Notes: generated by a model not told the origin, from the sequence alone. A stretch of DNA of 64,000 nucleotides from Actinomycetota bacterium (GCA_039028435.1 JBCCIC010000019.1:6053-70052), one strand, 5' to 3'; counted from the first letter of the stretch, positions 9,529 through 45,300 are shown. Translations and numbers: made by a program.

Positions 9529-9717
9529 CAGGCTGGATTGTGACGCGACACAGTGCGACACACAAGCCAGCCGGTCGACGTGTCGCCTTTCTGAGCGGCC
9601 GGCGACGCTTGTAATTTGACGCTTTCGTTCCTTTGTAATTTGGCTTTTGACACGAATAGGAACATTTCCGTGTCGACGCACTTGACAGTGACACGTAATC
9701 GTGCGAATCTGTGTCAT
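9529..9717. promoter_or_regulatory. divergent immunity switch region with operator-like repeats
   Basis: TTGTAATTTG direct repeat at 9609-9618 and 9633-9642. GCGACAC-type half sites at 9545, 9555, 9580 (reverse complement) and 9670 (reverse complement), plus TGACAC at 9689. TTGACA boxes at 9647 and 9682. Confidence 0.6.
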
Positions 9718-21933: not shown

Positions 21934-22749
21934 ATGACGAGCACGCATGAGCTCACATCGGCACTGGTCCGGTATCACGGTTCGAAGTCGAGACCACCGA
22001 TCGTGTGGGAGGAGATCGAGGCCGACTCGTCGCTTGGTCGATGCCGGTTCGATGTCCTCACGGCCGACGTGCTCGCCGGGCACCGGTTGCGTCTCCGGGC
22101 GTGGGAGGTGAAGGTCACGGCGCAGGATTTCTGGCGCGACGTCGAAGCCGAGAAGTCACGCAAGTACCTCGACGCCGGCGCATCGTGCGTCACCTACGTC
22201 GTCCCGCGAGGGCTTGTGTCGAAGTCCGACTGCCCCGAGTGGGCGGGGCTCATGACGTGGAACCCGGACACCGGAAGCTTCCGTACCACCCAGCGCGCGC
22301 CGGTCGAGATCCGGCCAATCAAGCCCGAGTTCATGGTTCGACTCATCCTGCGCTCGGAGGAGAAGAAGATCCGGCCGACCGAGACCCGATCCGAGCGTAT
22401 GGATCGATACCGCGCCGACATGCGGATGTCGTACTGGCTGAACATCGCAGCGTCACGGATGATCGAGAACGCCCGGTCGGCTGAAGACCGGGTGCAGTGG
22501 AAGATCGAGAACGCAGAGCGGGCGCAACGCCAGGCCGACGCGATGCTCGAACGTGCCCGCCAAGCCGGACCCGTCGCCTCTGCACTCTCGGACGTGCTGC
22601 GCCACGCATCGACCCTGTTGAGCCCCAGGCAAGGCTCCCTTTCGTCTGAGCCGACGAGGGGTCTCGACGAGTTCCTGGAGACCGCCGCGCTGATCGTCCC
22701 CGAGTCGTCACATCGCGAGCCGTGGCGGCCGACACCGGTGGCGTCGTGA
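21934..22749 (+). CDS. PD-(D/E)XK nuclease-like protein (MmcB-like)
   Basis: CRFDVLTAD ... AWEVKVT matches a D ... E-x-K nuclease core. C-terminal coiled coil. Confidence 0.45.
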   Translation: MTSTHELTSALVRYHGSKSRPPIVWEEIEADSSLGRCRFDVLTADVLAGHRLRLRAWEVKVTAQDFWRDVEAEKSRKYLDAGASCVTYVVPRGLVSKSDCPEWAGLMTWNPDTGSFRTTQRAPVEIRPIKPEFMVRLILRSEEKKIRPTETRSERMDRYRADMRMSYWLNIAASRMIENARSAEDRVQWKIENAERAQRQADAMLERARQAGPVASALSDVLRHASTLLSPRQGSLSSEPTRGLDEFLETAALIVPESSHREPWRPTPVAS

Positions 22750-22925
22750 ACGCGCCTGCTTGTCCGGCTGGGACGCCAGCGCACGTGTACGCGATGCGTC
22801 GCGCTCTCTCGGCGCTGCAGTCGATCACGGGCTCTCCGTCGATGCTTCATCGCCTCGTTCACCCGGTGTTCGATATCGAGGCTGAGTTGGTCGCGGCCGA
22901 GCTCGAGTGGGCGGGGTCGCGGTGA
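22746..22925 (+). CDS. hypothetical phage protein
   Basis: GTGA junction. 59 aa. Confidence 0.4.
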   Translation: MNAPACPAGTPAHVYAMRRALSALQSITGSPSMLHRLVHPVFDIEAELVAAELEWAGSR

Positions 22926-23371
22926 CGGCGCATGTCGATTACCGGCTCCCTGAGTCGACGGTCACGATCGGCGACCCGACCGATCCGGCGGTGTGGGCGT
23001 CCCACGCGTATGCGTTGCCGACGATCGCGGCTGGCGTGTTTTGGTGGCTCGGCGAGCTCATCTCGAACGCACCGGATCACGAGTCGTTCGTGGAGCTGCT
23101 CAACTCGGTGCCGGGTTTGGAGCCGGGCACGACCGCTCTGATGGAGTACGTAGACAAGCGGGTCCCGGTGGAGCGTCGACGCCCGGAGCTGTCGTGGCAG
23201 CATCACCGCGCCGTCGCTGGTCTCCCACCAGAGATCGCTGATGACATCCTCGACCAGGCGGCTGCGGGGAACCTGTCTGTCCAGGACGTCACGCAGGCGG
23301 TGACGGAGGCGACGTCGCAGCCTCGTGGCCCGGTGTCGGGCCCGTTGTTCGATCTCGAGGATCTGTCGTGA
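22922..23371 (+). CDS. hypothetical phage protein (ParB/HTH-like C-terminal segment)
   Basis: GTGA junction. LSWQHHRAVAGLPPEIADDILDQAAAGNLSVQDV. Confidence 0.45.
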   Translation: MTAHVDYRLPESTVTIGDPTDPAVWASHAYALPTIAAGVFWWLGELISNAPDHESFVELLNSVPGLEPGTTALMEYVDKRVPVERRRPELSWQHHRAVAGLPPEIADDILDQAAAGNLSVQDVTQAVTEATSQPRGPVSGPLFDLEDLS

Positions 23372-23763
23372 CCAGGCTTCGCAAGGTCGGCATCCCGGAT
23401 CTGTTGCCTGATCGTCCGATGTCGGACGGCGACTACGAGGAAGCGATCGCCACCGCGAAGACGGTCCTGGAGTTGGCGTCACGCGGGTCACGCCAACATC
23501 TCGGCATCGTGTACCGAGCGGTCCGGGTCGTGGCTCTCAACCGGCTCGGCGCACGCTGCGTACAGGCCGCCGATCTCGCGACCGAGCTCGGTCCGCATCC
23601 GTCGGTGTGGTCGCTGATGCGACGCGTCGAGGAAGCCTCTCGTGAGGTCACGGTGTTCGTGCTCACCGCGCGGCGTGGAGCTGATCGGGCGGTGTTCTGG
23701 CAGTGCGCTCAGCTCGATCTGACCGAGCGGATCCTCGCTGAGCAGACCGGCACACCTTCATGA
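23368..23763 (+). CDS. hypothetical phage protein
   Basis: GTGA junction. 131 aa. Confidence 0.45.
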   Translation: MTRLRKVGIPDLLPDRPMSDGDYEEAIATAKTVLELASRGSRQHLGIVYRAVRVVALNRLGARCVQAADLATELGPHPSVWSLMRRVEEASREVTVFVLTARRGADRAVFWQCAQLDLTERILAEQTGTPS

Positions 23764-23972
23764 CCAGCGGCTCGATGATCGACTACTCGGCTGTTGACGC
23801 CCTCAACGCGAAGAAACGACAAAGGATCCGGCGAGCTCACCAAGGCATCGGCAACGTCCTCAAGTCACCAAGCTGCCGGGCGATCTTGGCCGACGAGCAG
23901 CTGGCTGACTGGGCACAGATTCTGTACGACGAGCTCGGCAGAGCCCGCCAGCACCTCGGCGACTTCGCGTGA
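23760..23972 (+). CDS. hypothetical phage protein
   Basis: ATGA junction. 70 aa. Confidence 0.45.
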   Translation: MTSGSMIDYSAVDALNAKKRQRIRRAHQGIGNVLKSPSCRAILADEQLADWAQILYDELGRARQHLGDFA

Positions 23973-24568
23973 TCACGATGACGGTCGATCGCGCGCAAAC
24001 GGACACGAAGAAATGCGGCTACCCCACCAACCGCAAAACCCCCTGCCAAAACGACATCGGCATCGACGAAGAAGCCTGCAGCCGCCACAACGCCGCGGCC
24101 GAGAAAGACCGCCACGAGAAGATGGCCCGGTTCCTCGCCGAGTTCGACGGCACGTGGGGCGACGCCGAAGCCGCAGCGCAACGAGCCGGTGTCTCACGGT
24201 CGATTGTGTATCTGTGGCGTGACCGGTACCCGGAGTTCCGGGCCGACTGGGACCTGCTCCGTGTCGAGAACGCCCGCGCGTACAAGGAGGTGTTGGCGGA
24301 GCGGTTCTTCGTCGGCACTCGGGAGCCGGTGATTCATCAGGGCCGGATCACGGGCTGGTACCGGAAGGTCGATAACCGGATCGGCATGTTCATGTTGAAG
24401 GCGTTGGATCCGGCGTATTCGGATCGGGCGTCGGTGTCGGTGTCGTTGGAACGCGACGGTGACGCGGAGGCGGGGTTCGCTGGCGTGTTCGCTGCGGGCG
24501 GGTTCGCGGCGTTACAGGAGGCGATCGATGGGGTGCTCGAGGGCGAGATCGTCGAGGACGACCCGTGA
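23969..24568 (+). CDS. terminase small subunit
   Basis: HTH AAQRAGVSRSIVYLWRDRYPEFRADWD followed by an oligomerisation-like region. Located at the head of the late operon. Confidence 0.65.
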   Translation: MITMTVDRAQTDTKKCGYPTNRKTPCQNDIGIDEEACSRHNAAAEKDRHEKMARFLAEFDGTWGDAEAAAQRAGVSRSIVYLWRDRYPEFRADWDLLRVENARAYKEVLAERFFVGTREPVIHQGRITGWYRKVDNRIGMFMLKALDPAYSDRASVSVSLERDGDAEAGFAGVFAAGGFAALQEAIDGVLEGEIVEDDP

Positions 24569-24711
24569 TGCTCTAACAGGTGCTCGTCAGTAGCCGACCG
24601 ACTTGCCGTGCCCGAAGCCGGGCCTGATCGTCACCGGGCTGGGCGGAGAGTCCCGCAGGCGCTACGGGAGCCGACAAGAAACTCGAAAAGGAATCCACTA
24701 GTCTCAACGCT

Positions 24712-25017
24712 GTGGCCCGGGAGTTGAAACCGTGCGGCACCCTTGCCGCCTACCAAAGGCACTGGCGACGAGGCGAGCGTCCCTGCGAAGCCTGCAAAGA
24801 AGCGATGCGAGTCGCAGCCCGCAACCGACTCCGTCGCCGCGGCATACGGCCACGAGGACCGTTGAAACCTTGCGGAACGGTCGCTGCCTACCAACGACAC
24901 TGGATCAACGGCGAAGAACCCTGCGAGCTGTGCAAGGAAGCGATGCGTATCAGCGCCAGAGAACGCGGCCGCAAGAAACGCATGGCCAACCAAACAGCAC
25001 AGCAGACAGCCCGATGA
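24712..25017 (+). CDS. protein with two tandem C-x9-H-x7-C-x2-C zinc-like repeats
   Basis: KPCGTLAAYQRHWRRGERPCEACKEAM and KPCGTVAAYQRHWINGEEPCELCKEAM. GTG start. Confidence 0.55.
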   Translation: MARELKPCGTLAAYQRHWRRGERPCEACKEAMRVAARNRLRRRGIRPRGPLKPCGTVAAYQRHWINGEEPCELCKEAMRISARERGRKKRMANQTAQQTAR

Positions 25018-25170
25018 CCACGGTCAAGTGCACCACAGACGGCTCGGCGACGACTCGTCGGTTACAGATCCCGATTTTGGACTATCAAACACAATTGATG
25101 AGCGCATTTGCCCAACTACTGGCTTTCGATCTATTGTGCGGGCATTCGGTCCACACCTCGGGAGAATGTT

Positions 25171-25464
25171 ATGTTTGCAATGGTTCGCAACTCGATCGGC
25201 CGCTCGATAGCCATCGCCGCGGTCCTCGCAGGGCTACTGCTGGGACTGTCAGCCCTGTCGCCGATCGGACCGGAAGCCGACGCGGCGCCGGGGAACTGCT
25301 ACGGGCCACCACATGAGCACGGCGTACATCCGTCCATTGATACGCACGTGGGCACAGGTCAGATCACGAACTGGTGGGGCAACAACTACGAGCTGTGGAA
25401 CCAGTACAACAACCAGTACCCATACGGCGCAGGGCTCGGTTGGGCGTACTGCGGCTACTACTAG
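25171..25464 (+). CDS. small secreted Trp/Tyr/Asn-rich protein
   Basis: Signal peptide ending PEADA-AP. About 65-aa mature part with 2 Cys, ending WAYCGYY. GGGAGA ribosome-binding site. Visibly AT-richer upstream DNA. Confidence 0.6.
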   Translation: MFAMVRNSIGRSIAIAAVLAGLLLGLSALSPIGPEADAAPGNCYGPPHEHGVHPSIDTHVGTGQITNWWGNNYELWNQYNNQYPYGAGLGWAYCGYY

Positions 25465-25474
25465 GAGCTCGCCA

Positions 25475-26362
25475 ATGACGCGCTGGCTGGCGTGCGTAGC
25501 AGCGGCCCTGCTGCTCGCAGCCGCCTGCGCGTCAGAGGGCGACAGCTCCGCCTCGGAATCGACCAGCGCCCAGTCATCTGACCTGAAAGCGCTTCACGAG
25601 CTCGAACAGGACGCAATCGAACGGTGCATGCTCGACGCAGGTTTCGAGTTCGAACGATGGCCCTTCGTACCATTCGATGATCAGGCGGCAGCCCCAGAGG
25701 ACTTCCTGACGCTAAACACAGCAGACACGTTGGGTTACCGACTGTTGTTCTCCGCAATCCGCAACTACACGCCATCAGCGATCCCCCCGGAGTCCGCTCT
25801 GGCAAGCCAACAGACGTTCGACGAGTTCAGCGTCGCGCTATGGGGCCCGAACGACCATACACACGAACACGATCACGATCACGACGACACCCACACCCAC
25901 GGCGGCTGCGCTGCATCGGGTGCGCAAGTTCGTCGTGATGCCGATTCGATTGCCGGGTACGGCGATCGAATCGGCGAGGTGTTCGACTCAGTGCTTAGCG
26001 ACACCAGCTACGTCGAGTACTCATCGATGTGGGTCGAATGCCTGAAGGAGGCTGGTTTCGAGCCCCGAGCAGCGACACCCGATCGGCAAATCGTGTCGTA
26101 CCACATCGCCGAAGGACGATCGGTGCAAGCCGTTGTGACCGAGCTCTATGAGAACGAGGATGACGACGGTCCGATCCATGTCGCCGCAAGCCAGCGACTG
26201 CTGGATGAGGCCTGGCTCCTCTCCGTGACGAGCAACTACACGTCGCTTGCTGACCTACTTGACGCCGAGATTCTCGAAGCCCAGGCAGACCAGCGGTGCC
26301 GCGAAGAACACCGGGAGATCATCGCTCCTGTGGTCGAGCAGGCCTACGAGCTTCACTTCTAA
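25475..26362 (+). CDS. lipoprotein with His/Asp-rich metal-binding-like tract
   Basis: MTRWLACVAAALLLAAAC lipobox. HTHEHDHDHDDTHTHGG tract. Confidence 0.6.
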   Translation: MTRWLACVAAALLLAAACASEGDSSASESTSAQSSDLKALHELEQDAIERCMLDAGFEFERWPFVPFDDQAAAPEDFLTLNTADTLGYRLLFSAIRNYTPSAIPPESALASQQTFDEFSVALWGPNDHTHEHDHDHDDTHTHGGCAASGAQVRRDADSIAGYGDRIGEVFDSVLSDTSYVEYSSMWVECLKEAGFEPRAATPDRQIVSYHIAEGRSVQAVVTELYENEDDDGPIHVAASQRLLDEAWLLSVTSNYTSLADLLDAEILEAQADQRCREEHREIIAPVVEQAYELHF

Positions 26363-26530
26363 CCAGATCGTCGACGACGCAACTATGCGGCATTCCGCCG
26401 CGTCCCTGTGAGGGTCATCGCATCAGCTGACGTTCCCAGGCATGGTGCGCCTCGACCTCGCCTGGCCGGTATCGAGCCTCCTCGCCCGCCCCACACGCGA
26501 TGGCACGACACCCCGCGCAGCCCTCGTCTG

Positions 26531-26794
26531 ATGGCTCGGATCGAAGCACGCCGAACCGACACCCGCTGCCCGACCGGAAAGGTCCCGTACCGGTCAAAGG
26601 CGAAAGCCCGCCAGGCGATGATCCAGTGGAACTCGAAGCGAGGCCACGCGCCTCGAGGCGCGTTCCGGCCGCCGGATCAGCATCGGCTGTTGAACGTGTA
26701 CGAGTGCGGTCTGTGCGGTGATTGGCACACCACGAAGCAGGCGCCGGATGCGAGGTGCGGGAAGACCGGCCGGTGCGAATGCTGCGCTAGCTGA
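26531..26794 (+). CDS. small zinc-ribbon protein
   Basis: CPTGKVPYRSKAKARQAM ... YECGLCGDWHTT. Confidence 0.5.
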   Translation: MARIEARRTDTRCPTGKVPYRSKAKARQAMIQWNSKRGHAPRGAFRPPDQHRLLNVYECGLCGDWHTTKQAPDARCGKTGRCECCAS

Positions 26795-26795
26795 C

Positions 26796-28154
26796 TTAGG
26801 GCAGCATGGTCCAATAGCGGCCCACCAAATCAGCGACTGCTGATGCGTACCTCAGCACGACGTTGACCACGGTCCGGACGAAGTCTGTGTCTCGGATCGC
26901 GCGGTCATACAGGTGTCGACCAGCTGCCTGACCGATCCCCTGGGGCAGGCCCTTCGCCCACCGGACCAAGGCGCGTTCCGCGATACCAGACTCCGCGGGG
27001 CGCATTTGGCGTATGAACTCAAGGGCGACATCAACCTTCTTCTCGAGGGACTCCAAGCGCTCGGCAGTGCGTTGTCCAGAGAGGTTCGGCTCGCCGATCA
27101 ACTCCAATGCGTGAATCATTCCCATCACCCGCTCGGCCAGATCCAGTACAAATCCGGGCGGTTGGGCCCCGAGACCAGTAAGAACATCGCAGATGGTTTG
27201 TTGATCAAGGTCGCCGAGATCGATCATCAGTTCGCTGATGAGGCGCACTTGGCGTTCGATTGTGAATCGGTCCCCTACGTCGAGCCGGGTCTGAACGTTG
27301 ATCGTGTCGACGGCTGTGCGGAGCTGCACCTCAATGTCGCGCGGTATCGAGACCGTCTCGTCGGCGAGCATGCGCTCGAGGTCAGCATTTGGCCCTTCAA
27401 GCCGAGCGCGCGTCTGCGCTAGTGCCTCGCCAGACAGGGCTTCGACAGCGATTCTGCCCTCCTCGCTCCGGCCCGGGTCCGACCCAGATGGGATCTCGCG
27501 TTCGGTTTCGAGCGCTAGCGCAACGATCGCCGCCGCGTGCCAGAGGCTCACACGCACCCCAGCCCACACAAGACCGGCATGCACCCCAGCATCCGTAAAT
27601 GCCGCTATTTCCGCACCAGGACGGAGTGGGCCAAGTGGTCGATCGGCCGCGACGTAGTCACTGCTGAACGCGGCGGCGACGTCGTCGAACATGCCGCGTA
27701 GCCTCGCGATGAGGCCGAGCAGTTGGGCACCCCAGCCGCTCTGCCCCAACCGGCGGAAGAGCCGGTCTGAGCGAGCGAGGTGCGTGTCGTAGTCGCCGAG
27801 GCCGAGTGCGTAACCTACCGAGGCTCGAAGGGTGTGTTCAGGAAGGGTAAGTTCCGTTGTCCAACCGAGAGCCCGGTCCATCAAGCGGTCTATTGCGGCC
27901 TGAAACTGGTCGTTCAACGGTGGGTCGATCAGTGTCGAGCCTTCAAAGAACTTGATGATTTCCTGCAGCCGGTCGAGATCGCTGAGGCTTGCGCTCTGCA
28001 GCGCCCGCGCTGCGTTATTCACGTCGAACTGAGTGAGTTGACCGGCTCGCTCAAAGATCGTGAGCTCCAATTCCGGATCCACAGTCCCCAAGGTAGCCAA
28101 CAGATGACCTCGCGTCCGGGTGCTTCGAGGGCTGTACTTCAAGATCCGGGGCAT
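26796..28154 (-). CDS. orphan alpha-helical protein (about 430-452 aa), opposite strand to the late operon
   Basis: Long ORF with gene-like composition and no recognisable motif. Its stop is 1 nt from the convergent zinc-ribbon gene stop. Start uncertain: ATG at 28154 or GTG at 28082. Confidence 0.55.
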   Translation of the reverse strand: MPRILKYSPRSTRTRGHLLATLGTVDPELELTIFERAGQLTQFDVNNAARALQSASLSDLDRLQEIIKFFEGSTLIDPPLNDQFQAAIDRLMDRALGWTTELTLPEHTLRASVGYALGLGDYDTHLARSDRLFRRLGQSGWGAQLLGLIARLRGMFDDVAAAFSSDYVAADRPLGPLRPGAEIAAFTDAGVHAGLVWAGVRVSLWHAAAIVALALETEREIPSGSDPGRSEEGRIAVEALSGEALAQTRARLEGPNADLERMLADETVSIPRDIEVQLRTAVDTINVQTRLDVGDRFTIERQVRLISELMIDLGDLDQQTICDVLTGLGAQPPGFVLDLAERVMGMIHALELIGEPNLSGQRTAERLESLEKKVDVALEFIRQMRPAESGIAERALVRWAKGLPQGIGQAAGRHLYDRAIRDTDFVRTVVNVVLRYASAVADLVGRYWTMLP

Positions 28155-28494
28155 GGCGAACCCCGACATGCCAATGACCGCCCGCCGCGACGAGTTCCGC
28201 GACGCCCTCGAAGCGCTCTTCGCCGAGTACGCCGACATCATCTCGCCACTCGGCTCAGTCCGGTTCGACCAAGAAACCCACGAGATCGACCCGCTGGAAC
28301 AGGCCGAGCTCGAGGAAGAGATCCAGGCCCACCAGTACTTCGTGTCGAACTGGGTCCTTGCCATCGGACACGAACCTTTGGTCGACGACGAACGAGAACA
28401 CCCGTACATGCAGCAGATCCAGAAGCGCCAGCAATCGCCATGGGCGTCGAGCGGTCTGCTCGCCCACGCGCTCGGTGCCTACCAGCGGCGGTGA
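28153..28494 (+). CDS. hypothetical phage protein
   Basis: ATG at 28153, with alternatives at 28168 and 28174. Acidic, 113 aa. Confidence 0.5.
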   Translation: MANPDMPMTARRDEFRDALEALFAEYADIISPLGSVRFDQETHEIDPLEQAELEEEIQAHQYFVSNWVLAIGHEPLVDDEREHPYMQQIQKRQQSPWASSGLLAHALGAYQRR

Positions 28495-28498
28495 CGGT

Positions 28499-28771
28499 AT
28501 GGCCGACGAGCGCACCATGTCTGACCTGCTTGGCGCCGGGATCCAAGACGCGATCGCCGACACGCTCACCGACCAAGACGCCATTCCACTCGACTTCGTA
28601 GGCCTCGTCCGGTACATGCGGACCGGGCCCGACGGCGAGACGTTCCGGGCGTGGGCGATGGTCTCATCCGACGGGATCGACCCGTTCACCTACATGGGGA
28701 TGGTCCAGGCGATGCACACCCAGGCCGAGCTGACGGCCTGCCAGATCGTCGACCCCGACGACGACGGATGA
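28499..28771 (+). CDS. hypothetical phage protein
   Basis: ATG at 28499. Its stop overlaps the terL start. Confidence 0.5.
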   Translation: MADERTMSDLLGAGIQDAIADTLTDQDAIPLDFVGLVRYMRTGPDGETFRAWAMVSSDGIDPFTYMGMVQAMHTQAELTACQIVDPDDDG

Positions 28772-30414
28772 CCGGTTCGGCGGTGTACGCCGACCGCGCA
28801 ACCCCCGACATCCTCGCCGCCAAACTCGACCCCCGATTCAAACGGCACCCACACATCAAACTCATCGCCGTCGCGATCCTCGAAGCGATCTTCGACCCGA
28901 ACATCGACTGCGTCATCATCCGCACCCCGCCACGCGTCGGGAAGTCCACGATCGTGAACTGGGTGATCGTCTGGCTCCTCGACTGGTTCCCCGAGCTCCC
29001 GATCATCACCACCTCGTACGCGATCAGGCTCTCGAGGCGGAACAGCCGACGGATCCGCAACATCTTCGCCCGGTACGCATCGAAGCTCCGCACCGCGATC
29101 GGCGAAGACCAGACCGCCGCCGAACAGTGGGAAACCGACCAAGGCGGAGGCGTCCTCGCGTCGGCCGTGCGCGCCGCGCTGTCCGGATTCGATGCCGGCG
29201 TCGTGTTCGTCGACGACCCACACAAGTCGTGGGCCGAAGCGCAATCACCGGTGATCCGCGACGGCACGTGGGACTGGTTCGAGTCCGAGGCCGAGACCCG
29301 CGCCATGGAGTACACGTTCCTCGTCGGCGGCAAACCGGTCACGATCTACCCGACCTACGTGCTTGTTCACACGGCGTTCCACCCCGATGACCTGTCGCAC
29401 CGTGCCGAGAAGAAGTACTCCGCGATGGTCGACCCGGACACTGGGAAGGTCGAGAACCGGTGCAAGGTCGTCCACATCCCCGCCATCGCGGACCCGAACA
29501 TCGTCGACCCCGACCCGCTCGGCCGAGATCCGGGCGAGTCGATCTGCGAGGAGATGCATCCGGCCAAGCGGTACCGGAGGATCTTCGCTGCGACATCGAA
29601 GTTCATCGTCGCTGCGCTCTATCAGGGTGCGCCGTTGTCGACCGAGGACGAACTCGTCGAGCGCGCCTGGTGGTCGTGGGCCGACAAGCCACCGAAGCTC
29701 GAACGGCGGATCGCGACCTTCACGTCGTGGGATCTGACGTTCAAGCGCACCGGGAAGTCATGGGTCGTCGGCCAGCTCTGGACGATCACCCGATCGCTCA
29801 CCGAGCCCGACAAACTCGAGTTCTGGCTCCTCGACCAGATCCGACGCAAAGCCGGGTTCGTGGAACAGCGGCTCATCATCCGAGCGTTCGCAGAGAAACA
29901 CCCGGATGCGGATTGGCACCTGATCGAGGACGCAGCCAACGGTCCGGCGATCATCGACGACCTGCGACTGCCGTGGATCGACACGCAGGCGCATGGCGAT
30001 GACGGGACCCGCCGGCCGGCTGTCCGATCGGATCTGTACGGCGAGAAGCGATGGCCAGCCGTGGCCGGTGTGGTCGCAGTGCCTGCGGTCGGAACGAAAC
30101 CGGATCGGCTGGTCGGTGTGTCGCCGACGATCCGTGACGGCCGGTGCCATCTGCCTGCATGGTGGGAGCCGACATCGGAGCCGAGGTATCCCGGCGATCG
30201 GGGCGACATCGAGTCGATCGAGGAAGCGTGGGCGGGATTGATCAACGAGTGCGCCGACATGCCGAACGCGGCGAACGATGACCAGGCGGACTGTTTGTCG
30301 CAGGCGATCCGCTGGGGCATCGAACATGTGAACGGTGGATCGACGGGCGAGTCGTCGCAGTCGGTCGCGTTGCAGCATCCGCCGAAGGTGCGACGCCGAC
30401 GCCGGAAACGCTGA
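28768..30414 (+). CDS. terminase large subunit
   Basis: Walker A RTPPRVGKST and Walker B GVVFVDDPHK. C-terminal nuclease-size domain. Confidence 0.85.
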   Translation: MTGSAVYADRATPDILAAKLDPRFKRHPHIKLIAVAILEAIFDPNIDCVIIRTPPRVGKSTIVNWVIVWLLDWFPELPIITTSYAIRLSRRNSRRIRNIFARYASKLRTAIGEDQTAAEQWETDQGGGVLASAVRAALSGFDAGVVFVDDPHKSWAEAQSPVIRDGTWDWFESEAETRAMEYTFLVGGKPVTIYPTYVLVHTAFHPDDLSHRAEKKYSAMVDPDTGKVENRCKVVHIPAIADPNIVDPDPLGRDPGESICEEMHPAKRYRRIFAATSKFIVAALYQGAPLSTEDELVERAWWSWADKPPKLERRIATFTSWDLTFKRTGKSWVVGQLWTITRSLTEPDKLEFWLLDQIRRKAGFVEQRLIIRAFAEKHPDADWHLIEDAANGPAIIDDLRLPWIDTQAHGDDGTRRPAVRSDLYGEKRWPAVAGVVAVPAVGTKPDRLVGVSPTIRDGRCHLPAWWEPTSEPRYPGDRGDIESIEEAWAGLINECADMPNAANDDQADCLSQAIRWGIEHVNGGSTGESSQSVALQHPPKVRRRRRKR

Positions 30415-30459
30415 CCGCGTCCCCGACCATCACGCCGTGTCGGTGCATCGTCAGCGTCG

Positions 30460-32157
30460 ATGGAAGCCGAGCATCACCTCGACCAGTGGGCACCGCTCAA
30501 CCAATGGCTGACCGAGCCACGCAGCCTCGGCGACGGCCAATGGATCCCACGCGCCGACCAGCGGCGCCTCGCCGCCTACCACCTCCTGCGCGCCGTCGAG
30601 ACCAACAACCTCAAGGACATGCTCGAACCCGACGAGGACGGCAACCCGCCCGCGCTCGCCGAGTGGGGCGAAGCATCGATGTTCGTGTCCCGCGTCATCG
30701 CCGGGCTCCTGTCACGATCACTGACGTTCATCGTCGACGGCGCCGAACAGCCGCCACCGCCGATCGCGCCGATCCCGGACCCGATCCCCGAACCCGACCG
30801 GACAGACCAGGCCGCAGTCGACGCGTACGAAGCCGCCGTCGAGCTACGCACCGAAGCCGCGAACGAAGCGATCGAGAAGTGGCGGGAACGCCATGCCGCC
30901 TACAAGACCGCCGTCGCGTGGCAGACCTGGTGGGACGACTGGGCCGTCAAGGAGCAGTACCTCGCCAAGCTCGGCGAGAACGAACGGTCCTACGTTGGGC
31001 CGCTCGGCGACGGCGTCCTCGTGCACGGATGGGACCCGGAGCTTGGCCGGCCGTACGTGAACATCATCGACCCGGGCGAGTACTTCCCGGTGCTCGACGC
31101 TCACAAGCCGCGGTGGCCGGCCCGTGTGTACCGGGCGTGGGAGCACAACCACGAGAAGCCCGACGGCACCATCGAGGAGCGCCTCTACCGGGTCCGGTGG
31201 GACACCATCGATCTCGACGGGCCCCAACGGTTGCCGTGGAACACAGAGTCGACGACGAAGACCGTCCGACTCACCGAACACTGGTGGGATCGCGGCGACG
31301 CCGGCGACTGGCACGGCCTCGACGAGAACGAAGCCACAGAAGTGCGGGCCGTCGACGACATGGGCATCGACTTCGTGCCCGTCGTCCACATCCCCAACAC
31401 ACCAGAGACCGTCAACCACTACGGCCAATCGTTGCTGGCGCTCTACGTCGGTCTGTTCGCAGCGATCGCCCGCCAGAACGCCAACATCGTCGACGCCGCC
31501 GAGCTCGCGGCGACGCCGGCGTTCACCTCGAACGGGGTGGATGTTCCGAACGTGAACCTCGGACCCGGCGCGGTCCTCAATGTCCAGGACGGCGAACTCG
31601 ATCCGCTCGAACTCGGCCCGGCGCTCGAACCGTTGCTGAAGGTCGGCGATTGGCTGATGGACCGGTTCGCGACGAACACACAGGTCGGGAAAGCGATCCT
31701 CGGTATCACCACGGGCGAGAGCGGATCGTCCGGCATCAAGCTCCGTCTGCAGTTCGGGCCGTTCGAACAGCTCATCGAATGGATGCGCCCATCGCGGGCC
31801 GAGAAGTACGCGCTCTCTGCGAAGATGATCATGCGCCTCGCCCAATACGGCGGCGAAGACGTGCCTGAGGGGCCGCCGCCGAAGATGCGGGTCGAGTTCG
31901 GGTCGATCACGCCGGCCGACCTGCAGTCGGTGATCGAGGACATCAACAAGCTCGGCGACGTCATCTCGCCGGCGACGAAGCTTGCTGTGCTCAAGGCCGC
32001 GGGTTGGCCGATCGGCGACATCGAAGAGGAGCTGCGCCGCGCCGAGATGGCGAACTTTGAGAACGCCGCGCTGATCGTCGAGGCGACCGGGAACACCGAA
32101 GCGGCAGCGCGGTACCTCGGCATTCAGGGCGACGCCGCGTCCGATCAGGGCAGCTGA
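30460..32157 (+). CDS. portal protein
   Basis: 565 aa, between terL and the scaffold gene. N-terminal RLAAYHLLRAVETNN segment typical of actinophage portals. Confidence 0.75.
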   Translation: MEAEHHLDQWAPLNQWLTEPRSLGDGQWIPRADQRRLAAYHLLRAVETNNLKDMLEPDEDGNPPALAEWGEASMFVSRVIAGLLSRSLTFIVDGAEQPPPPIAPIPDPIPEPDRTDQAAVDAYEAAVELRTEAANEAIEKWRERHAAYKTAVAWQTWWDDWAVKEQYLAKLGENERSYVGPLGDGVLVHGWDPELGRPYVNIIDPGEYFPVLDAHKPRWPARVYRAWEHNHEKPDGTIEERLYRVRWDTIDLDGPQRLPWNTESTTKTVRLTEHWWDRGDAGDWHGLDENEATEVRAVDDMGIDFVPVVHIPNTPETVNHYGQSLLALYVGLFAAIARQNANIVDAAELAATPAFTSNGVDVPNVNLGPGAVLNVQDGELDPLELGPALEPLLKVGDWLMDRFATNTQVGKAILGITTGESGSSGIKLRLQFGPFEQLIEWMRPSRAEKYALSAKMIMRLAQYGGEDVPEGPPPKMRVEFGSITPADLQSVIEDINKLGDVISPATKLAVLKAAGWPIGDIEEELRRAEMANFENAALIVEATGNTEAAARYLGIQGDAASDQGS

Positions 32158-32195
32158 GCCGGTGCGACCGTGAACGGCATCAACCCCGACCCCCG

Positions 32196-32903
32196 ATGAA
32201 GGGACCTCAAGTCATGCGCCGGTTCGCTCGAATGCTCGGTTTCCACACCCGATTGCTCGCCTTGTTCGCGATGCTCACGCTCACCGGCGACGGCGGCGAC
32301 AGCGGCGGCGGGGACAGCAACAGCGGCAGCAGCAAGAACGATGACGGTGGCGGCGACGAAGCACACGCGCAGGCAATCGCACAGGCCGAGGCCGCCGCAG
32401 CAGCCAAGGCCAAGGCCGACGTCGAAGCGAGCGTCGCCGAGACCCTCGGCATGAGCCCCGCAGAAGCGAAGAAGATCCTCGACGCCAAGAACGCCGCCGA
32501 CCGCGAGGCAATGACCGAAGCCGAGCGGATCAAGGCCGAAGCCGAAGACAAGGCAGCGGCCGCCGACAAGGCGAAGAGCGAAGCCGAGACCGCGATCCAC
32601 AACGCCAACGTCACCGCCGCCCTCTCCGAAGCCGGCGTCACCGACAATCCCGGAGCGCTCGTCCCGCTCGTCGTCGTCGACACCGGCGCCGACGCTGCCG
32701 CCATCAAGGCCGCCGTCGACACGCTCCTCAAGGAACGACCCGGCCTCGTCGACAAGCCCGGCCCAGCCGACCACAGCATCGGCGGCCGAGGATCCGCCGG
32801 CCAGAACGGCGGCGACACCAGCACCGCCAAGGAACGCGCCAAGAAACGCGCCGACGACTACCGGTCCCGGAACCAGCGCCCCCGCCTCGAAGCCGTCAAC
32901 TAG
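32196..32903 (+). CDS. scaffolding protein
   Basis: Ala/Glu/Lys-rich coiled coil, located between the portal and capsid genes. Confidence 0.7.
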   Translation: MKGPQVMRRFARMLGFHTRLLALFAMLTLTGDGGDSGGGDSNSGSSKNDDGGGDEAHAQAIAQAEAAAAAKAKADVEASVAETLGMSPAEAKKILDAKNAADREAMTEAERIKAEAEDKAAAADKAKSEAETAIHNANVTAALSEAGVTDNPGALVPLVVVDTGADAAAIKAAVDTLLKERPGLVDKPGPADHSIGGRGSAGQNGGDTSTAKERAKKRADDYRSRNQRPRLEAVN

Positions 32904-32939
32904 CTCGACCCCGTCCCAGCAACCAAGGAGAAGAACCCA

Positions 32940-33314
32940 GTGACCGAACTGGCTCAGACCCAAACCACCGACATCAGCGGGGACGACATCAACCCGTTCC
33001 TGTCGAAGACCCGTGAGGGTTTCAGCGTCACGATCGATGCTGCGAACCTGACCGCCGCCGACGTCGGCGGATCGTTTCCCGGCGTGCTCCGCAAGGGGTT
33101 CCCGCTCGGTGTCGCCGCCGATGGCGTCACCTACGAGAAGAAGGACGACGCCGACCTCGAAGGGCTCCTGTCGGAGTCGCTCCGAGTGAAGTCGGCGACG
33201 TCCGTCGTCCACGCGGCCCTGTGCCTCGAGGCAGTCGTCGACGAGTCGCTTCTGCCCGTCGCGATCACCCAGCCCGGCAAGGACGCCGTGGCCGGCCGGA
33301 TCACCTTCCGCTAG
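32940..33314 (+). CDS. head decoration-like protein
   Basis: 124 aa, directly upstream of the major capsid gene. GTG start after AAGGAGAAG. Confidence 0.45.
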   Translation: MTELAQTQTTDISGDDINPFLSKTREGFSVTIDAANLTAADVGGSFPGVLRKGFPLGVAADGVTYEKKDDADLEGLLSESLRVKSATSVVHAALCLEAVVDESLLPVAITQPGKDAVAGRITFR

Positions 33315-39753: not shown

Positions 39754-40097
39754 TTCTCGACCCTGAGTTCGCTCTCGAGGTCTCGTACACCGCCAGCCGA
39801 GGCATCCCCCGCTCTGTCCTGTGGGACTGGTCCGAGCATGACCGGGTCGCGGCGTTGGTTTGGTGGCAGCGCGAGCTCGAGACGTGCAAGGGGTGCGGCA
39901 CCGTCTCTTCCGATTGGGTGCTGCCGAACGGACGGCGGAAGAAGGACGGCGACCCGACGCTGCCGTGGGTCAGTGTGATCGATATCTGCCACGGCTGCGC
40001 CGCGAAGGAAGCCGATCGCGAAGCGCAGTCGAAGAAGACGAGCCCGGTCTTTGGCCGGCTGTTCGGGTTCCGACGCAGGCGCGCTACTGACGCCTGA
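38956..40097 (+). CDS. tail assembly chaperone, frameshift-extended (G/T-like) isoform
   Basis: The -1 frame is open from the heptamer to the TGA at 40095-40097. The extension carries CKGCG ... CHGC. Confidence 0.6.
39741..39747 (+). other. -1 programmed ribosomal frameshift slippery heptamer G_GGA_AAA
   Basis: Zero frame reads GTG GGA AAA GGC TGA. A -1 slip reads GGG AAA AGG CTG, joining the open frame to 40097 (GKRLILDPEF...). Confidence 0.75.
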
Positions 40098-40128
40098 CGC
40101 TCGACCACAGCGCACGTACGGTGGGCAC

Positions 40129-40854
40129 ATGTCGAGCCCAAGACCAGAACGACCTGTTGCCCTTTCCGACGCCGAGATCCTCGAACTGCCGCTGGACGCA
40201 CTCGCGCTACGGCTCCTCTCCGGGCTTCACGAGCACGCGACCCGAGACCGGCACACCGTGGACGGAGCACTCAACGCCTGGCTCCACGCTGGTATCGGTT
40301 CCGATAGCGACCGCATGCAAGCACTGGTAGAGGGCTACCAGTGGCTTCAGAGGCACGGGCTCATCGCTAGTGGCCCATTTGCGCCATACAACGGTGTCAT
40401 TACGAGGCTGGGGCGTGCGGTGCTCAATGACGGGCCTCGGGTGCTTCACGCCCTCGAGCTACTGAGCGCCGAGCTTCACCCAGCGATTGCGAAAGTCCGT
40501 AGCCAGTTCTACCTCGGTGAGTACGAGCTCGGCGCATTCGCAGCGATGAAGGCCGTGGAGGTCCGGGTTCGTGAAGTCGGCGGATTCAGCGACTCGGACT
40601 TCGGCGTCCACCTGATGCGAGAGGCCTTCCGACCCGACTCTGAGAAGGCGAAGCCAATGGGCCCTCTCACAGATGAGAGTGCGGAGAGTGGCGAACGTCA
40701 AGGGTTGTCGAACCTCTTTGCGGGTGCTGTGGCCGTGTTCAAGAACCCCTCTAGCCATCGGAACGTCTCGTTCGATGATCCAGTGGAGGCGGCCGAGATC
40801 GTGAACTTCGCGAGTCTGCTGCTGCGCATCGTCGACCGCCGCTCACACCGCTAG
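40129..40854 (+). CDS. TIGR02391 (Hypoth_Ymh)-like protein with winged-helix-like N-terminus
   Basis: C-terminal GEYELGAFAAMKAVEVRVREV ... LFAGAVAVFKNPSSHR ... AEIVNFASLLLRIVD. Confidence 0.55.
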   Translation: MSSPRPERPVALSDAEILELPLDALALRLLSGLHEHATRDRHTVDGALNAWLHAGIGSDSDRMQALVEGYQWLQRHGLIASGPFAPYNGVITRLGRAVLNDGPRVLHALELLSAELHPAIAKVRSQFYLGEYELGAFAAMKAVEVRVREVGGFSDSDFGVHLMREAFRPDSEKAKPMGPLTDESAESGERQGLSNLFAGAVAVFKNPSSHRNVSFDDPVEAAEIVNFASLLLRIVDRRSHR

Positions 40855-40926
40855 GTCGCTCGACAACGAGCCGAGTCGGGACATACAGTGGGCCTTGAAG
40901 TCCACTTCCGCCAAGGTCGTGCCCTT

Positions 40927-41421
40927 ATGACGCAACGATTCGCTTGTTCGCGGTGCAAACAGACGTTGACCATCGAGCAGTGTCGACGCTGCGGAGGGCG
41001 CAAGACCGTCGGTGCAGTTAGGCCGCGATCCTGCGATCAGTGCAACGGCGAAGGAGCGGTTTATATCTGCAGTTGCTGCGAGCGCTGGGTGAATCCGACG
41101 CATGTCAAGGAGACCCCACCGTGTTCTGTATGCGGAGCGGCTCGTGAAGGGCAGCGCCGTATCGAGAAGCTGCCGATTCGCTCCCGTCCTGGACCTGGCA
41201 CGTCTCCATCGGCAGGTGGGTACGGCTTTACGCGGCGGGGATACGTGCCGAACGCTCCAGGTCGTCGACAGCGCCGGACAACACCTCAAATGTACGCCTC
41301 AACCACAACGATGTGGACTGAGCATTTCCCATGCCCGGTCTGCGTACCGAACGGCTCCACACGGGTGAGCGCAAGGAACCCATCTCGGCTCGAGACGTTC
41401 TTTTGGCGAGTGTTTTCCTGA
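40927..41421 (+). CDS. multi-CxxC (DnaJ-type CxxCxGxG) zinc-finger protein
   Basis: CSRC, CRRCGGRK, CDQCNGEG, CSCC, CSVC, CPVC. Confidence 0.5.
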   Translation: MTQRFACSRCKQTLTIEQCRRCGGRKTVGAVRPRSCDQCNGEGAVYICSCCERWVNPTHVKETPPCSVCGAAREGQRRIEKLPIRSRPGPGTSPSAGGYGFTRRGYVPNAPGRRQRRTTPQMYASTTTMWTEHFPCPVCVPNGSTRVSARNPSRLETFFWRVFS

Positions 41422-41464
41422 ACTGGAGCCCTCGGAGGAGTCCTAACTGGCAGAGGCTAGGAAC

Positions 41465-41728
41465 CTAGAGAGAGTCGTGGATTTGCGTGATCCTCATCAC
41501 CTTCATTGGCAGGCCCAGATGCACATCGATCAGGAGTCGCGCCTCGGTGACGATGATGCGACGCGTCAATGGGCTGCGCCCCGGAATCGGTGAGTGCGCG
41601 ACCAGATCGTCGAAGTTCTCGAGCGCTGCTATTACGGCATGCAGCATCGAGGCGCGACGCGCGTCACTTGGTTCGGCTGCGACCCAGGCATCGATGACGT
41701 CTTCGCTGTCCGCAAGCCGGGCCGCCAC
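41465..41728 (-). CDS. putative toxin partner of the Panacea protein (possible RelE/ParE-like)
   Basis: 87 aa, starting 6 nt downstream of the DUF4065 gene. PIPGRSPLTRRIIV ... LLIDVHLGLPMKVMRITQIHD loosely fits the RelE/ParE pattern. Confidence 0.4.
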   Translation of the reverse strand: MAARLADSEDVIDAWVAAEPSDARRASMLHAVIAALENFDDLVAHSPIPGRSPLTRRIIVTEARLLIDVHLGLPMKVMRITQIHDSL

Positions 41729-41734
41729 GGCTGA

Positions 41735-42241
41735 TCAGTTGAGGAGATGTGCGTATCGCTCGGCGAGTTCGGTAGAGACCATTCCCCGGTTCGGGTCCGC
41801 CCACAACGACTCCCGCCACGCACGTTCCTCGGCGAACTGCCGACCGTAGAAATCGCGGATCGATGACTCATCGATCCACTTACCGCCCGCACCCCACGCT
41901 TCGATCCATGGGCTCTCGCTGTGGGTCATCTCTACCAGCGCGTCTGCGCTGAAGCCGCCATAGATCGCAAGCGCTTCGTCCACTGCGCCAGCCGCCGAAG
42001 AGTCCGCGGGGTACGAGTCGCCGCGACCGTCGGAGGAACTCAGGTGGCGCCGACCCTTGAACCGGTTGAAAACCTCAGGACAGACCGGGCCGTTCTCGTA
42101 CGCTTTGAACTCCGCGAGGGGCTGACCGGTCTCGACCAGATGGATCGCGTTCGCGTAGAACATCAGTTTCTGGAGCTTGTACGCGGTGATTGGTTCCGTG
42201 ACGCGGCCGAGGATTTCATCGGCTAGACGCATGCCGGGCAT
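41735..42241 (-). CDS. Panacea-domain (DUF4065, SocA/GepA-like) antitoxin-type protein
   Basis: ITAYKLQKLMFYANAIHLVETGQPLAEFKAYENGPVCPEVF. AAGGAAC ribosome-binding site. Confidence 0.7.
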   Translation of the reverse strand: MPGMRLADEILGRVTEPITAYKLQKLMFYANAIHLVETGQPLAEFKAYENGPVCPEVFNRFKGRRHLSSSDGRGDSYPADSSAAGAVDEALAIYGGFSADALVEMTHSESPWIEAWGAGGKWIDESSIRDFYGRQFAEERAWRESLWADPNRGMVSTELAERYAHLLN

Positions 42242-42369: not shown

Positions 42370-45300
42370 GTGGACGGTCAGCTCACCGACTCGTACGTAG
42401 TCTCGACGAAGTTCCAGACCGACGTCACCGGCCACGTCCGCAACGTCGATCGAGCCTCCCGCTCGATGAAGGGCTTCAGCGACGAGTCCCGCCGCGCCGA
42501 GACCCGCACGACCGGCCTCGGCCGCACCTCTGGACAAGCCGCCGCCGGCGTCGACAAGATCGACCGCGCCGCCACCAAGTCGGCTCGGTCGATCGGTCGA
42601 GCGTCCGACTCGGCGAAGAAGTTCGGTCGATCCATCACCGTCCTTGCAACCGGGATTGTCGGAGCCGGGTTCGGGCTCGCGAAGCTCGGAGGCGACTACG
42701 AGCGCGAGTTCTCGAAGATCACCGGCCTCGTAGGCATCGCTCGCGAAGAGGTCGAGCTGATGCAGGCGTCGACGCTCGCGCTCGCTGGCCGGACCGCTCA
42801 GGGGCCGCAGAATCTCGCCCGGGCGATGTTCACGCTCCAATCGGCTGGGCTCCGCGGCGAGGCCGCGATGTCGGCGCTGGAGCAGTCGGCGCAGCTTGCT
42901 GCCGGTGGCATGGGCGACGTCGGAACGATTGCGCAGGCGACGACATCGATTCTGGATCAGTACGCGTCGAAGGGCGTCGACGCTGCCGATGCTGCGGACT
43001 TCCTCGCGTCGACGGCACGTGCCGGCAACTTCGAATCGTCACAGCTGGCCGGGTCGCTCGGCAAGGTCCTGCCGGTCGCGTCGCAGCTTGGTATTTCGCT
43101 CGGCGACGTCGGCGGCGCGGTGGCGTTGCTGACTCGAGGAAACGGCAACGCGTCAGAGTCGATCACGCAGGTGGCGGCTGCGATGCGGGTGCTGATGGCG
43201 CCGTCGCAGGAGGCGATCGACACGCTCGACGACGCGAACCTGACGATGCAGGACATCAAGGACACCGCCGCGGGTCCTGGTGGTCTGGTCGCGGCGCTGC
43301 AGCAGATGTACGACGCGACAGGCCGGAACGACGAGCAGTTCGCTCGGATGCTCGGATCGTCTGAGGCCGTGAATGCTGCGTTCCAGATCCTGAACGCGTC
43401 GAACGAGGCCCTCGATGGGACGTTCGGGGCGGTCGCCGATCGGGCGGGTGTCGCCGCGGAGGTGTTCGACGCTGCGTCTGAGACTTCGTCGTTCAAGTAT
43501 GAGCAGGCGATGACCCGGATCCGGGTTGCGGCCACAGATGTCGGTGGCGAGTTGGCTCCGATCTTCGCTGGGATCGCGGAGCAGACGGCGACGTCGATCG
43601 GCGAAGCGATCGAGTGGTGGCGTCAGCTCCCGGAGCCGGTGCAGGACGCAGCGAAGGGCATCGGCGCTGTGGTCGCGGTGTCGGGGCCGGCTGCGATCGG
43701 GATCGGGAAGCTCGGCGGCGCAGCGAAGGTTGCCGGTCCGTTGCTGAGCAGGTTGTCGCTCGGGTCGACGTTGAAGAACGTCGCCGTCTGGGGCCCCGTC
43801 GGTCTCGCTGCGGCCGGGGCGATTGGGCTGGTCGGTAAGGCTTGGTTCGACGCTGCGAAGGAGAAGCAGGCAGCGGCGGAACGCGCTGAGATTCTGACGG
43901 ACTGGCTCCGTCAGCAAGGCGATGCGGCCGTGAACTCCGTCGACGAATTCGGCGCGCTGATCGAGGAGCTTCGAGAACTACGCGCCGTGTCGGGCGATCT
44001 GGCTGACGGCGGTGATCTGACGGACTTCGTCGGACCTGAGGCGATCTTCTCGCAGTTCACCAAGGGCGCCGAGTCGGCTCGCAGCGCGTTGTACGACCTG
44101 GGCCTGAACTTCGATGATGTCGTGTCAATCGTCCGCGGCGGCACTGACGCATTCCACGACTTCGAGTTCGACGCCTTCGGCGGACTCAGCAAGTTCCAGA
44201 AGAAGCTCGACTCGGCCGAGCCGAGTGTCCGCGCGTTCGGGGAATCGCTGATCGAAGCCCACGAGAGCGGCAGGCTCTCGCGGGACGCGATGGAGCTGTT
44301 GGTACGTGCGCTCGATGAGACTGCTGATGGCTTCGACGACTCACGACGAACCATCGAAGCCGAAGCCGAAGCAAAGATCGAGAACGCCGTCCTCAATGGC
44401 GAGCTCTCCCGCTCGCAAGCAGACCTCGCTCTCGCCATCGCACGTCGGGCCGGCGAAACCGAGGTCTACACCGCTGCGCTCAAGAACCTGAATCCGCATA
44501 TCGAGCTCGCGATCCAGCGAGAAGAGCAGCGGCTCGCGCTCATCGAGACGAACACCGCCGCATACTCCGCAGCCGACGCCGCGCTGATCGGCGGCATCAC
44601 CACCCTCACCGGCCACGGCGACGCGGCACTCTACGCCGACGGCGCATACAGCGACTTCGGTGACGCTGCCGAGGACCTCACCGAGGAACTCACGCCCGTT
44701 CAGGAAGCGCTGAGTCGTGTCTCCGACGAGCTGCGCGCCCAGTACGACGCCGCGATCAGCGCGGCCAGCGCCGTTGACGACCTACGCCAAGCCTCCTCAG
44801 CACTGCACGGCCCGCAGCAGCGGCTCGACTCCGCCACTCGACGCACCGACAAGTCGCTCGACCAGTTCAAGGATGCCGCCGCCGACGCCAAAGAGGCGCT
44901 CGACGAGATGAACGAAGCCATCGACAATCACGGCAAGGACAGCAAGGCAGCAGAGAAGGCGACCGCTAAGTACGAGGAAGCACTGCTCGAGGCGACAATC
45001 GCTGGCGAGGAGTTCGGGACCAGCGTCCATGAACAGATGCTCGCCATGATCGAGACCGGCGCCACCGTCGAAGAGGTCGCCCGGTTCCAGGAGGAGTACT
45101 CCGAACAGCTCCGTGTCACCGGCACCGAGGCCGGCATCACCTCAGACCGCGTCGCTCACCTCATCGCGAACTACCTCGGTCTGCCGAAGGAACTCATCAC
45201 CGAGTTCGTCGCCCAGGTGAAGGCCGGATCGATCGCCGCGACCGCTCAGGAGTTCACCGATCTCACCACCCAGGGTTGGATCATCGGCGTCCAAAGCTCG

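Follow-up and report, generated by a model that had tools for sequence, protein, structure and literature searches.

In the Pseudomonas phage JBD26, Tab is a minus-strand, self-promoted defence moron located between the genes for the small (terS) and large (terL) terminase subunits, and a plus-strand gene transcribed together with the late operon encodes its antidote, anti-Tab (Patel et al., Nat Commun 2024; PMC10884400). Here we report on a comparable arrangement in a 64-kb window (i.e., the whole stretch of DNA that was analysed, part of a 97-kb contig of an NCBI metagenome-assembled genome) from an uncultured Actinomycetota bacterium. The window harbours an integrated temperate prophage of actinobacterial, siphovirus-like type, in which terS and terL are set apart by an accessory segment of approximately 3.6 kb (24569-28152; hereafter the island) with five open reading frames (ORFs), one of which is a minus-strand gene referred to below as the orphan. 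Our data suggest that the island represents a slot for cargo (moron) genes within the packaging/late operon, and that the orphan may be expressed in the lysogen and protect it against superinfecting phages; for this reading as a whole we estimate a probability of roughly 55%. That the island represents accessory cargo is well supported, while it is plausible, if tentative, that the orphan acts in defence or exclusion.

Comparison with known systems

The likeness to Tab/anti-Tab lies in the architecture. Both loci belong to the late operon of a temperate phage and have accessory genes placed between terS and terL, and in both one minus-strand gene is convergent with a small plus-strand gene and has its 5' end abutting the next late gene. 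We checked the JBD26 layout, where the 3' ends of gp30 (plus strand) and gp31 (minus strand) overlap and the start of Tab is 30 nt away from terL. In the window the convergent stops are 1 nt apart (TGA of a zinc-ribbon gene at 26792-26794; stop of the orphan, TTA on the plus strand, at 26796-26798), as noted in an earlier reading of the window made from its sequence alone (the sequence-only reading). Moreover, Tab has 83 amino acids (aa) and the orphan 428-452; anti-Tab shares 1 bp with terS, whereas none of the island genes reaches into terS and the first island ORF follows it after 143 nt; the island has three genes more than Tab/anti-Tab; and blastp and phmmer with Tab and anti-Tab against the window genes showed no sequence similarity, with matches at chance level only (lowest E 0.1). 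Since the likeness is architectural only, the sizes differ and there is no overlap with terS, the locus is not a member of the Tab family. In the literature compared, a terS-terL defence moron has been shown experimentally only for Tab in Pseudomonas phages, and the comparable actinobacterial layout suggests that cargo may generally dock at the terS-terL junction.

We use the term moron in the way of Hendrix and colleagues. As for such morons, the island genes are absent from relatives, have conserved flanks and an atypical composition, and include one reversed gene and a candidate promoter of their own; unlike them, the slot lacks a clear promoter-terminator pair, is multi-gene and has a counterpart with other contents in the nearest relative. 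Actinobacteriophages are reported to carry prophage-mediated defence genes (Dedrick et al., Nat Microbiol 2017, as cited in PMC10884400). Such genes usually lie near the immunity/integration cassette. Our locus shares with these the host phylum and a temperate prophage with lysogen-type accessory genes of unknown families, and one homologue of the orphan is located by an integrase; in contrast to them the island lies in the packaging module, and the sequences showed no relationship. Ltp-type superinfection-exclusion lipoproteins (PF07553), e.g. in phage TP-J34 (PMC3952083), resemble the His-rich lipoprotein of the island (25475-26362) in being prophage-encoded and exposed outside the membrane, and a true Ltp-domain protein is also encoded by the window prophage (7934-9121); the His-rich lipoprotein, however, has no Ltp domain according to Pfam and was not assigned to any family. 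Morons in late-operon slots are known as such, and what is new and uncharacterised are the gene families. Prophage accessory slots are productive ground for new defence and lysogenic-conversion genes.

Flanks and composition of the island

The left flank of the slot is terS (23969-24568, plus strand; phrog_4044 'terminase small subunit', E=4.8e-15), for which the public annotation by the NCBI Prokaryotic Genome Annotation Pipeline (PGAP) uses the alternative start ATG 23978 (196 aa; protein MEM7096173). The right flank is a gene for a DUF7213 protein (28153-28494, plus strand; Pfam E=1.4e-8, 35.2 bits versus a cutoff of 27; AAF567_24440), followed by a 90-aa gene (28499-28771, plus strand; AAF567_24445), the stop of which overlaps the start of terL (ATGA), and by terL itself (28768-30414, plus strand; phrog_38, E=9.2e-55; AAF567_24450) with a portal gene downstream, from 30460. 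Given that the DUF7213 and 90-aa genes also precede terL, the whole terS-terL gap is 4.2 kb. The sequence-only reading had placed five ORFs between the end of terS (24568) and the start of terL (28768), and ORF calls and PHROG profiles bear this out.

The island genes have a mean GC content at third codon positions (GC3) of 0.72 (range 0.65-0.78) compared to 0.83 ± 0.04 in 43 core prophage genes (Mann-Whitney p=5e-4); for host genes the mean is 0.84. The terS and 90-aa genes are core-like (0.84 and 0.89, respectively), and the DUF7213 gene has a GC3 of 0.82. Low values are common to the island, the left arm of the prophage (0.69) and a second island among the tail genes (0.735), and hence GC3 delineates the accessory complement of the prophage, cleanly marking all three accessory regions.

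None of the island genes matched a virion or packaging family in Pfam or PHROG, and Rfam predicted no RNA element in the island. In a collection of 50,697 phage records, no match was obtained by megablast with 22000-33000, or by tblastn with the orphan, the zinc-ribbon protein, the DUF7213 protein, the lipoprotein, the secreted peptide and terS; the orphan and the lipoprotein were likewise without match in the plasmid collection.

The terS-terL slot in related phages

Eight loci with a terL 58-38% identical to that of the window (L001-L005 and L013-L015) were compared; scans of viral and genome contigs revealed no close terL relatives. Apart from a widespread Cys motif (see below), no island gene was found in these loci or in the phage records, in keeping with the cargo suggested by the sequence-only reading. 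In the nearest relative (L001; terL 58% identical, starting at 10001), terS (6098-6772; phrog_4044, E=4.7e-26; tblastn versus the window terS 6.7e-5) lies directly after a conserved homologue of the window gene 22907-23371. The gap to terL is approximately 3.2 kb and holds six unrelated plus-strand genes, i.e. genes for a metallophosphoesterase, a 175-aa protein, an HNH-like protein, a 58-aa protein, a dGTP pyrophosphohydrolase-like protein and a phrog_1389 protein. The earlier view that the island splits a normally adjacent terS/terL pair was therefore overstated: a terS of the same family is far from terL also in L001, with other genes in between, and thus the gap is an older variable slot of the sub-lineage comprising the window prophage and L001 rather than a recent disruption. 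Particular to the window prophage are the content of the slot and the reversed gene, not the gap itself. In L002, L004, L013 and L015 a conserved 150-179-aa gene abuts terL instead, and L014 has a 185-aa homologue of that gene 0.75 kb upstream of terL. The terminase neighbourhood as a whole is a cargo hotspot in the clade of this prophage.

Three further observations concern these neighbourhoods. Large and differing DNA-modification cassettes are located upstream of terL in L002, L004/L005, L013, L014 and L015, with genes of the QueC/QueD/QueE/FolE type (7-deazaguanine), for a PAPS reductase with a ParB-like protein, for DegT/inositol-phosphate synthase/methyltransferase, and for TAGT. In distant relatives the terL-to-portal interval comprises several kb of small genes, including ArdA. 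An N-terminal C-x8-10-C-x10-11-C-x2-H motif is common to the window terS (23969-24120), the L001 terS (6098-6290) and the ParB-like protein of L002 (5350-5520), which suggests a putative common zinc-finger DNA-recognition module in front of different packaging or partition proteins.

The minus-strand gene belongs to a rare family

The orphan (26796-28154, minus strand; AAF567_24435) has three candidate starts, ATG 28154 (452 aa), TTG 28100 (434 aa; the call in a Logan assembly, with GAGG 7 nt upstream) and GTG 28082 (428 aa; PGAP). It had been proposed that its ATG shares a CATG with the start of the DUF7213 gene. This tetranucleotide is indeed present at 28152-28155; the overlap of start codons is, however, doubtful because the N-termini of the homologues align nearer to the shorter versions, and it is probably an artefact of taking the longest ATG ORF. 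With either of the shorter versions there is no start-codon overlap and instead a divergent spacer of 52-70 nt (28083-28152 if the start is GTG 28082). Here the minus strand carries TACCTT (28095-28090), a -10-like candidate identified by hand; no other TANNNT hexamer precedes the short starts. The position of TACCTT 7 nt before GTG 28082 would be compatible with a leaderless transcript; such transcripts are common in actinobacteria.

An exhaustive HMMER search over 1.84 billion representative proteins returned, besides the orphan's own record, four distant homologues (E=8.7e-16, 1.6e-12, 3.8e-09 and 1.1e-04). The family alignment (A1) has 17 invariant columns (E..YLR.Q.DT...QL.....DRF..ER...LI...G......L..LG..P) and a conserved core at approximately residues 225-345, and the sense frame is the sole open frame in all four loci. 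The homologues, the invariant residues and the sense-only open frame together argue that the orphan represents a real and very rare gene family; the 450-aa opposite-strand gene of the sequence-only reading is thus genuine, and what has to be given up is its status as a strict orphan. Other searches added no members: a word-indexed single-sequence search retrieved the public record of the orphan only, a profile search with A1 retrieved this record and the homologue P0032 (both already in the query), and scans of viral, genome and metagenome contigs revealed no relatives.

The protein is acidic, predicted to be all-helical, probably cytoplasmic and without catalytic or nucleotide-binding motif. 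As anticipated from the sequence, no recognisable motif was found, that is, there was no match in Pfam, PHROG, NCBIfam, PADLOC or PDB. AlphaFold2 gave a mean pLDDT of 40 with the single sequence and 44.6 with a five-sequence alignment, with values of 62-85 in the core. Foldseek repeatedly indicated a likeness to the helical lid of DnaK (probability 0.8-0.95, E>1), which drew interest because one of the homologues adjoins an Hsp70-like gene; we rejected it as generic helical-bundle similarity, as an hhalign comparison of the orphan family with the neighbouring Hsp70-like protein was negative and this protein is membrane-anchored, with an Hsp70 nucleotide-binding domain. The idea of a membrane effector was also discarded: the top Kyte-Doolittle window of 19 residues scores 1.63 and has an Arg in it, and no transmembrane segment is conserved there. 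A stretch of 48% GC (27177-27267), one of three windows this AT-rich in the prophage body, lies inside the orphan coding sequence and corresponds to approximately residues 296-326 of the 452-aa version, within the core.

Two of the five known sequences of the family are found in defence- or integration-associated contexts. The homologue P0030 is flanked by a LeoA/LeoBC-like dynamin pair and a type II restriction-modification system, and VapC and transposases are encoded nearby; the genes for P0031 and a tyrosine integrase converge where an integrated element borders on housekeeping genes. The contig of P0032, of 1.9 kb, provides no context. The contexts of P0030 and P0031 fit a stand-alone defence or exclusion gene, or moron cargo. 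The PADLOC models did not match P0030 or P0032, and for P0031 only noise (E>0.01) was returned. The gene upstream of P0030 (L006 7424-9694) specifies a 756-aa protein in which a long low-complexity linker and a single transmembrane helix accompany an Hsp70-type nucleotide-binding domain and an extracellular domain.

The other genes of the island

Two of the plus-strand ORFs encode small Cys-rich proteins and are absent from the public PGAP annotation, where the consecutive accessions MEM7096173-178 skip both; the likely reason for this omission by the automatic annotation is a codon usage unlike that of the genome (GC3 0.65-0.78). Both nevertheless look like real coding sequences as judged from their features. 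The Cys-repeat gene (24712-25017, plus strand; GC3 0.65) encodes two copies of LKPCGTxAAYQRHWxxGExPCExCKEAMR, with the motif C-x11-H-x8-C-x2-C in each; 24 of the 29 residues are identical between the copies, and the codon changes comprise nine synonymous and five non-synonymous ones. It matches the C-terminal motif of the 'WhiB-like' PHROGs phrog_22267 (E=7e-15) and phrog_12112 (1.7e-14), while there was no match to Pfam Whib (PF02467) at E<=0.1 and nothing significant among PDB sequences. Most likely, its product is a small, basic DNA-binding protein of the zinc-finger type, from a phage family of such proteins. The zinc-ribbon gene (26531-26794, plus strand) encodes 87 aa from ATG 26531, with a longest ORF from GTG 26408; it matches phrog_3424 (unknown function; E=9e-6), its third-position GC signal is in frame from approximately 26530, and no exact protein was present in the collection searched.

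The Cys-repeat gene is followed by a non-coding AT-rich spacer (25018-25170, plus strand) with a candidate promoter and a Shine-Dalgarno sequence. The sequence-only reading had pointed out that 25080-25170 is AT-richer than its surroundings, and this is confirmed: with 48% GC versus a window mean of 65.5%, the segment belongs to the lowest 0.23% of all 91-nt windows, with only three such windows in the prophage body. The candidate promoter, identified by hand, consists of TTGCCC (25108-25113) and TATTGT (25132-25137) with an 18-nt spacer, and GGGAGA at 25160-25165 is the Shine-Dalgarno sequence of the small secreted peptide (25171-25464, plus strand; AAF567_24425, 94 aa; GC3 0.78). The peptide has a Sec-type signal sequence with probable cleavage after ADA, which would leave a mature product of approximately 59 aa, rich in Gly, Asn and aromatic residues and with two Cys; no family and no phage record was matched. 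The His-rich lipoprotein gene (25475-26362, plus strand; AAF567_24430; GC3 0.71) starts 10 nt after the peptide gene, and the two are probably co-transcribed. Judged by eye, its N-terminus (MTRWLACVAAALLLAAAC) is signal-plus-lipobox-like, and it further has a His/Asp tract (HTHEHDHDHDDTHTH), two CxxxAGFE repeats and an internal DNA repeat; searches of family, phage and plasmid collections gave only a sub-threshold UreE match to the His tract (E=0.028). Homologues were not retrieved for either protein. On the basis of their localisation signals we infer that the peptide and the lipoprotein may act at the envelope, in exclusion or conversion.

Taken together, the island seems to be composed of at least three separately acquired modules, namely the tandem zinc-finger protein, the AT-rich promoter region with the secreted peptide and the lipoprotein, and the zinc-ribbon gene convergent with the minus-strand gene. 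A 12-mer, CAGATCGTCGAC, is present in exact copies just past the lipoprotein stop (26364-26375) and at the 3' end of the gene before terL (28742-28753), and a related copy lies at the 3' end of terS (24545-24556). We considered these as insertion scars and rejected this as unproven: the seven near-matches in the window (1.9 expected) all lie in coding orientation, where they encode Q-I-V-D with favoured codons, and the repeats thus probably reflect codon bias and not recombination.

Possible mode of action and alternative explanations

Expression in the lysogen presupposes a temperate prophage, which makes it possible for the cargo discussed here. Most likely, a weak promoter of the orphan's own, near the DUF7213 gene, would drive its transcription in the lysogen, as long as the prophage stays repressed, and the secreted-peptide/lipoprotein pair would probably also be expressed, from its own weak promoter. 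The orphan protein would then guard the lysogen by binding a phage component, not by catalysis. Once the prophage is induced, late transcription that begins upstream of terS would read through to terL and produce the plus-strand island proteins; it would run antisense over the orphan and silence it, and a late-expressed island protein may also neutralise the orphan in the way anti-Tab neutralises Tab in JBD26. A plus-strand scan for intrinsic terminators found none between the island genes (the only site lies inside the lipoprotein gene), and no intrinsic terminator on this strand would stop such read-through. A bidirectional terminator at the convergent stops was rejected, as the hairpin there has a z-score of approximately 0 and is no more stable than in shuffled sequences. 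A more specific version, in which the orphan is a new single-gene, prophage-expressed defence family that is Tab-like in blocking a packaging or assembly component of superinfecting phages, and is turned off in the phage's own lytic cycle by antisense late transcription and/or an island antidote (the zinc-ribbon or the Cys-repeat protein), is speculative and we give it little credence. If true, the terS-terL slot would be a recurrent docking site for defence morons common to Pseudomonas and actinobacterial phages.

Several results weigh against a protective cargo slot. The putative identity of terS comes from the PHROG annotation only, and no terS family was matched in a Pfam search of the 23969-24568 protein. 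With respect to defence, the PADLOC-DB v2 hidden Markov models gave no match for seven window proteins, island proteins included; of the moron or defence cargo originally suggested it is the cargo that stands (GC3 0.72 versus 0.83; absence from relatives), and no defence family has been matched. Foldseek with the orphan model against PDB returned nothing below E=0.5 and hence no fold assignment. As to the earlier expectation that the orphan has its own promoter, a sigma-70 consensus scan of the island found no promoter at threshold, and the TANNNT-type -10 candidate is all that was seen; nor was there an intrinsic terminator around the orphan. The argument from association is drawn from two informative homologue contexts only, and none of the other island proteins was found in the loci of the orphan homologues (L006-L008); no partner co-occurs, which also argues against an obligatory two-gene system. 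The slot in L001 holds genes that resemble ordinary lytic-cycle enzymes, all on the plus strand and compositionally not distinct, and thus the slot is not intrinsically a defence locus. Finally, the Cys motif of the island forms the N-terminus of gp1 of Arthrobacter phage BaileyBlu, whose gene is located directly upstream of terL, which it overlaps, at the position of terS.

The last two of these points also bear on what we regard as the principal, though rather unlikely, alternative, that the island genes serve the phage's own lytic cycle, with the zinc proteins as packaging or late-transcription factors and the orphan as an early/middle regulator or anti-defence factor. The position of the motif in BaileyBlu implies that at least the Cys-repeat gene could serve the phage itself; ArV2 gp38 likewise has two copies of the motif and an early gene of L014 one copy, and the Cys-repeat protein may be related to packaging or regulation rather than cargo. 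The nucleotide-metabolism and HNH-type genes in the L001 slot are typical lytic functions, and the cassettes upstream of terL in distant relatives are of the DNA-modification, i.e. counter-defence, kind. Such a lytic role is, however, at odds with the low GC3 of the island, which is that of the lysogeny/accessory regions and not of the lytic core, with the secreted peptide and the lipoprotein, for which a packaging role is not obvious, with the lack of conservation of the island genes in relatives, and with the orphan homologues, which are located in bacterial chromosomal islands and by an integrase and not in phage lytic modules. It is also conceivable, and in our view improbable, that the peptide and the lipoprotein form a lysogenic-conversion module unrelated to defence (bacteriocin-like with immunity, or metal scavenging) and that the orphan is unrelated cargo. 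A signal peptide on a small two-Cys product rich in aromatic residues, Gly and Asn, an adjacent lipoprotein with a long His/Asp tract, and a candidate promoter of their own in the AT-rich spacer would suit this; on the other hand, neither protein matches a bacteriocin, immunity or metal-binding family, the UreE match being sub-threshold, and the searches retrieved no homologue of either. It is very improbable that the orphan is a decaying remnant or an antisense frame that is open by chance in GC-rich DNA, with mostly non-functional filler making up the island. The GC content of its first and third codon positions is the same (0.70 each), so that a frame plot alone is strand-blind, there is a 169-aa ORF on the opposite strand, the homologues are only four among approximately 15 billion proteins and the AlphaFold2 confidence is low; yet homologues with E=8.7e-16 to 3.8e-09 come from independent contigs, share the 17 invariant residues and are open in the sense frame alone, and two independent gene callers predicted the gene. 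A protective cargo slot with a lysogen-expressed orphan remains the reading we prefer.

The prophage and its other accessory regions

The early, packaging, head, tail and lysis genes of the prophage extend from approximately 10000 to approximately 53000 on the plus strand, and host-type genes (WD40, CobW, MMPL, aminotransferase) begin at 53351. Between the lysis genes and the host genes, a tRNA 3' fragment is present at 53172-53215, with the T-arm GCAGGTTCGAATCCTGC at 53180-53196, and ARAGORN found no complete tRNA anywhere within the 64-kb window. Such a fragment without a complete tRNA is the signature of an attachment (att) site that duplicates the 3' end of a tRNA gene, and here it probably represents attR, the copy of an attachment site that overlaps a tRNA. 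There is no integrase within the window, and the prophage therefore probably reaches past its left edge.

The left arm (1-9987) is lysogeny/defence-like, with a GC3 that is uniformly low. It encodes an OLD/GajA/AriA-like ABC-type ATPase (3518-5368), the Ltp-domain surface lipoprotein of superinfection-exclusion type mentioned above (7934-9121, minus strand) and a helix-turn-helix repressor-like protein (9181-9987, minus strand); a stretch of 41% GC is located at 9609-9699. The second internal low-GC3 island (40051-42241) lies among the tail genes, just upstream of a 1169-aa gene (42370-45879). It encodes, on the plus strand, a Hypoth_Ymh protein (PF09509, 1.4e-25) with weak PADLOC matches to PD-Lambda-3_B and to HEPN-type proteins; it also has a Cys-rich CxxC ORF (approximately 40930-41330) and, on the minus strand, a gene with a SocA/Panacea antitoxin domain (41735-42241) and, after it, an 87-aa gene (41465-41728). 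The tail island looks like a toxin-antitoxin or abortive-infection moron.

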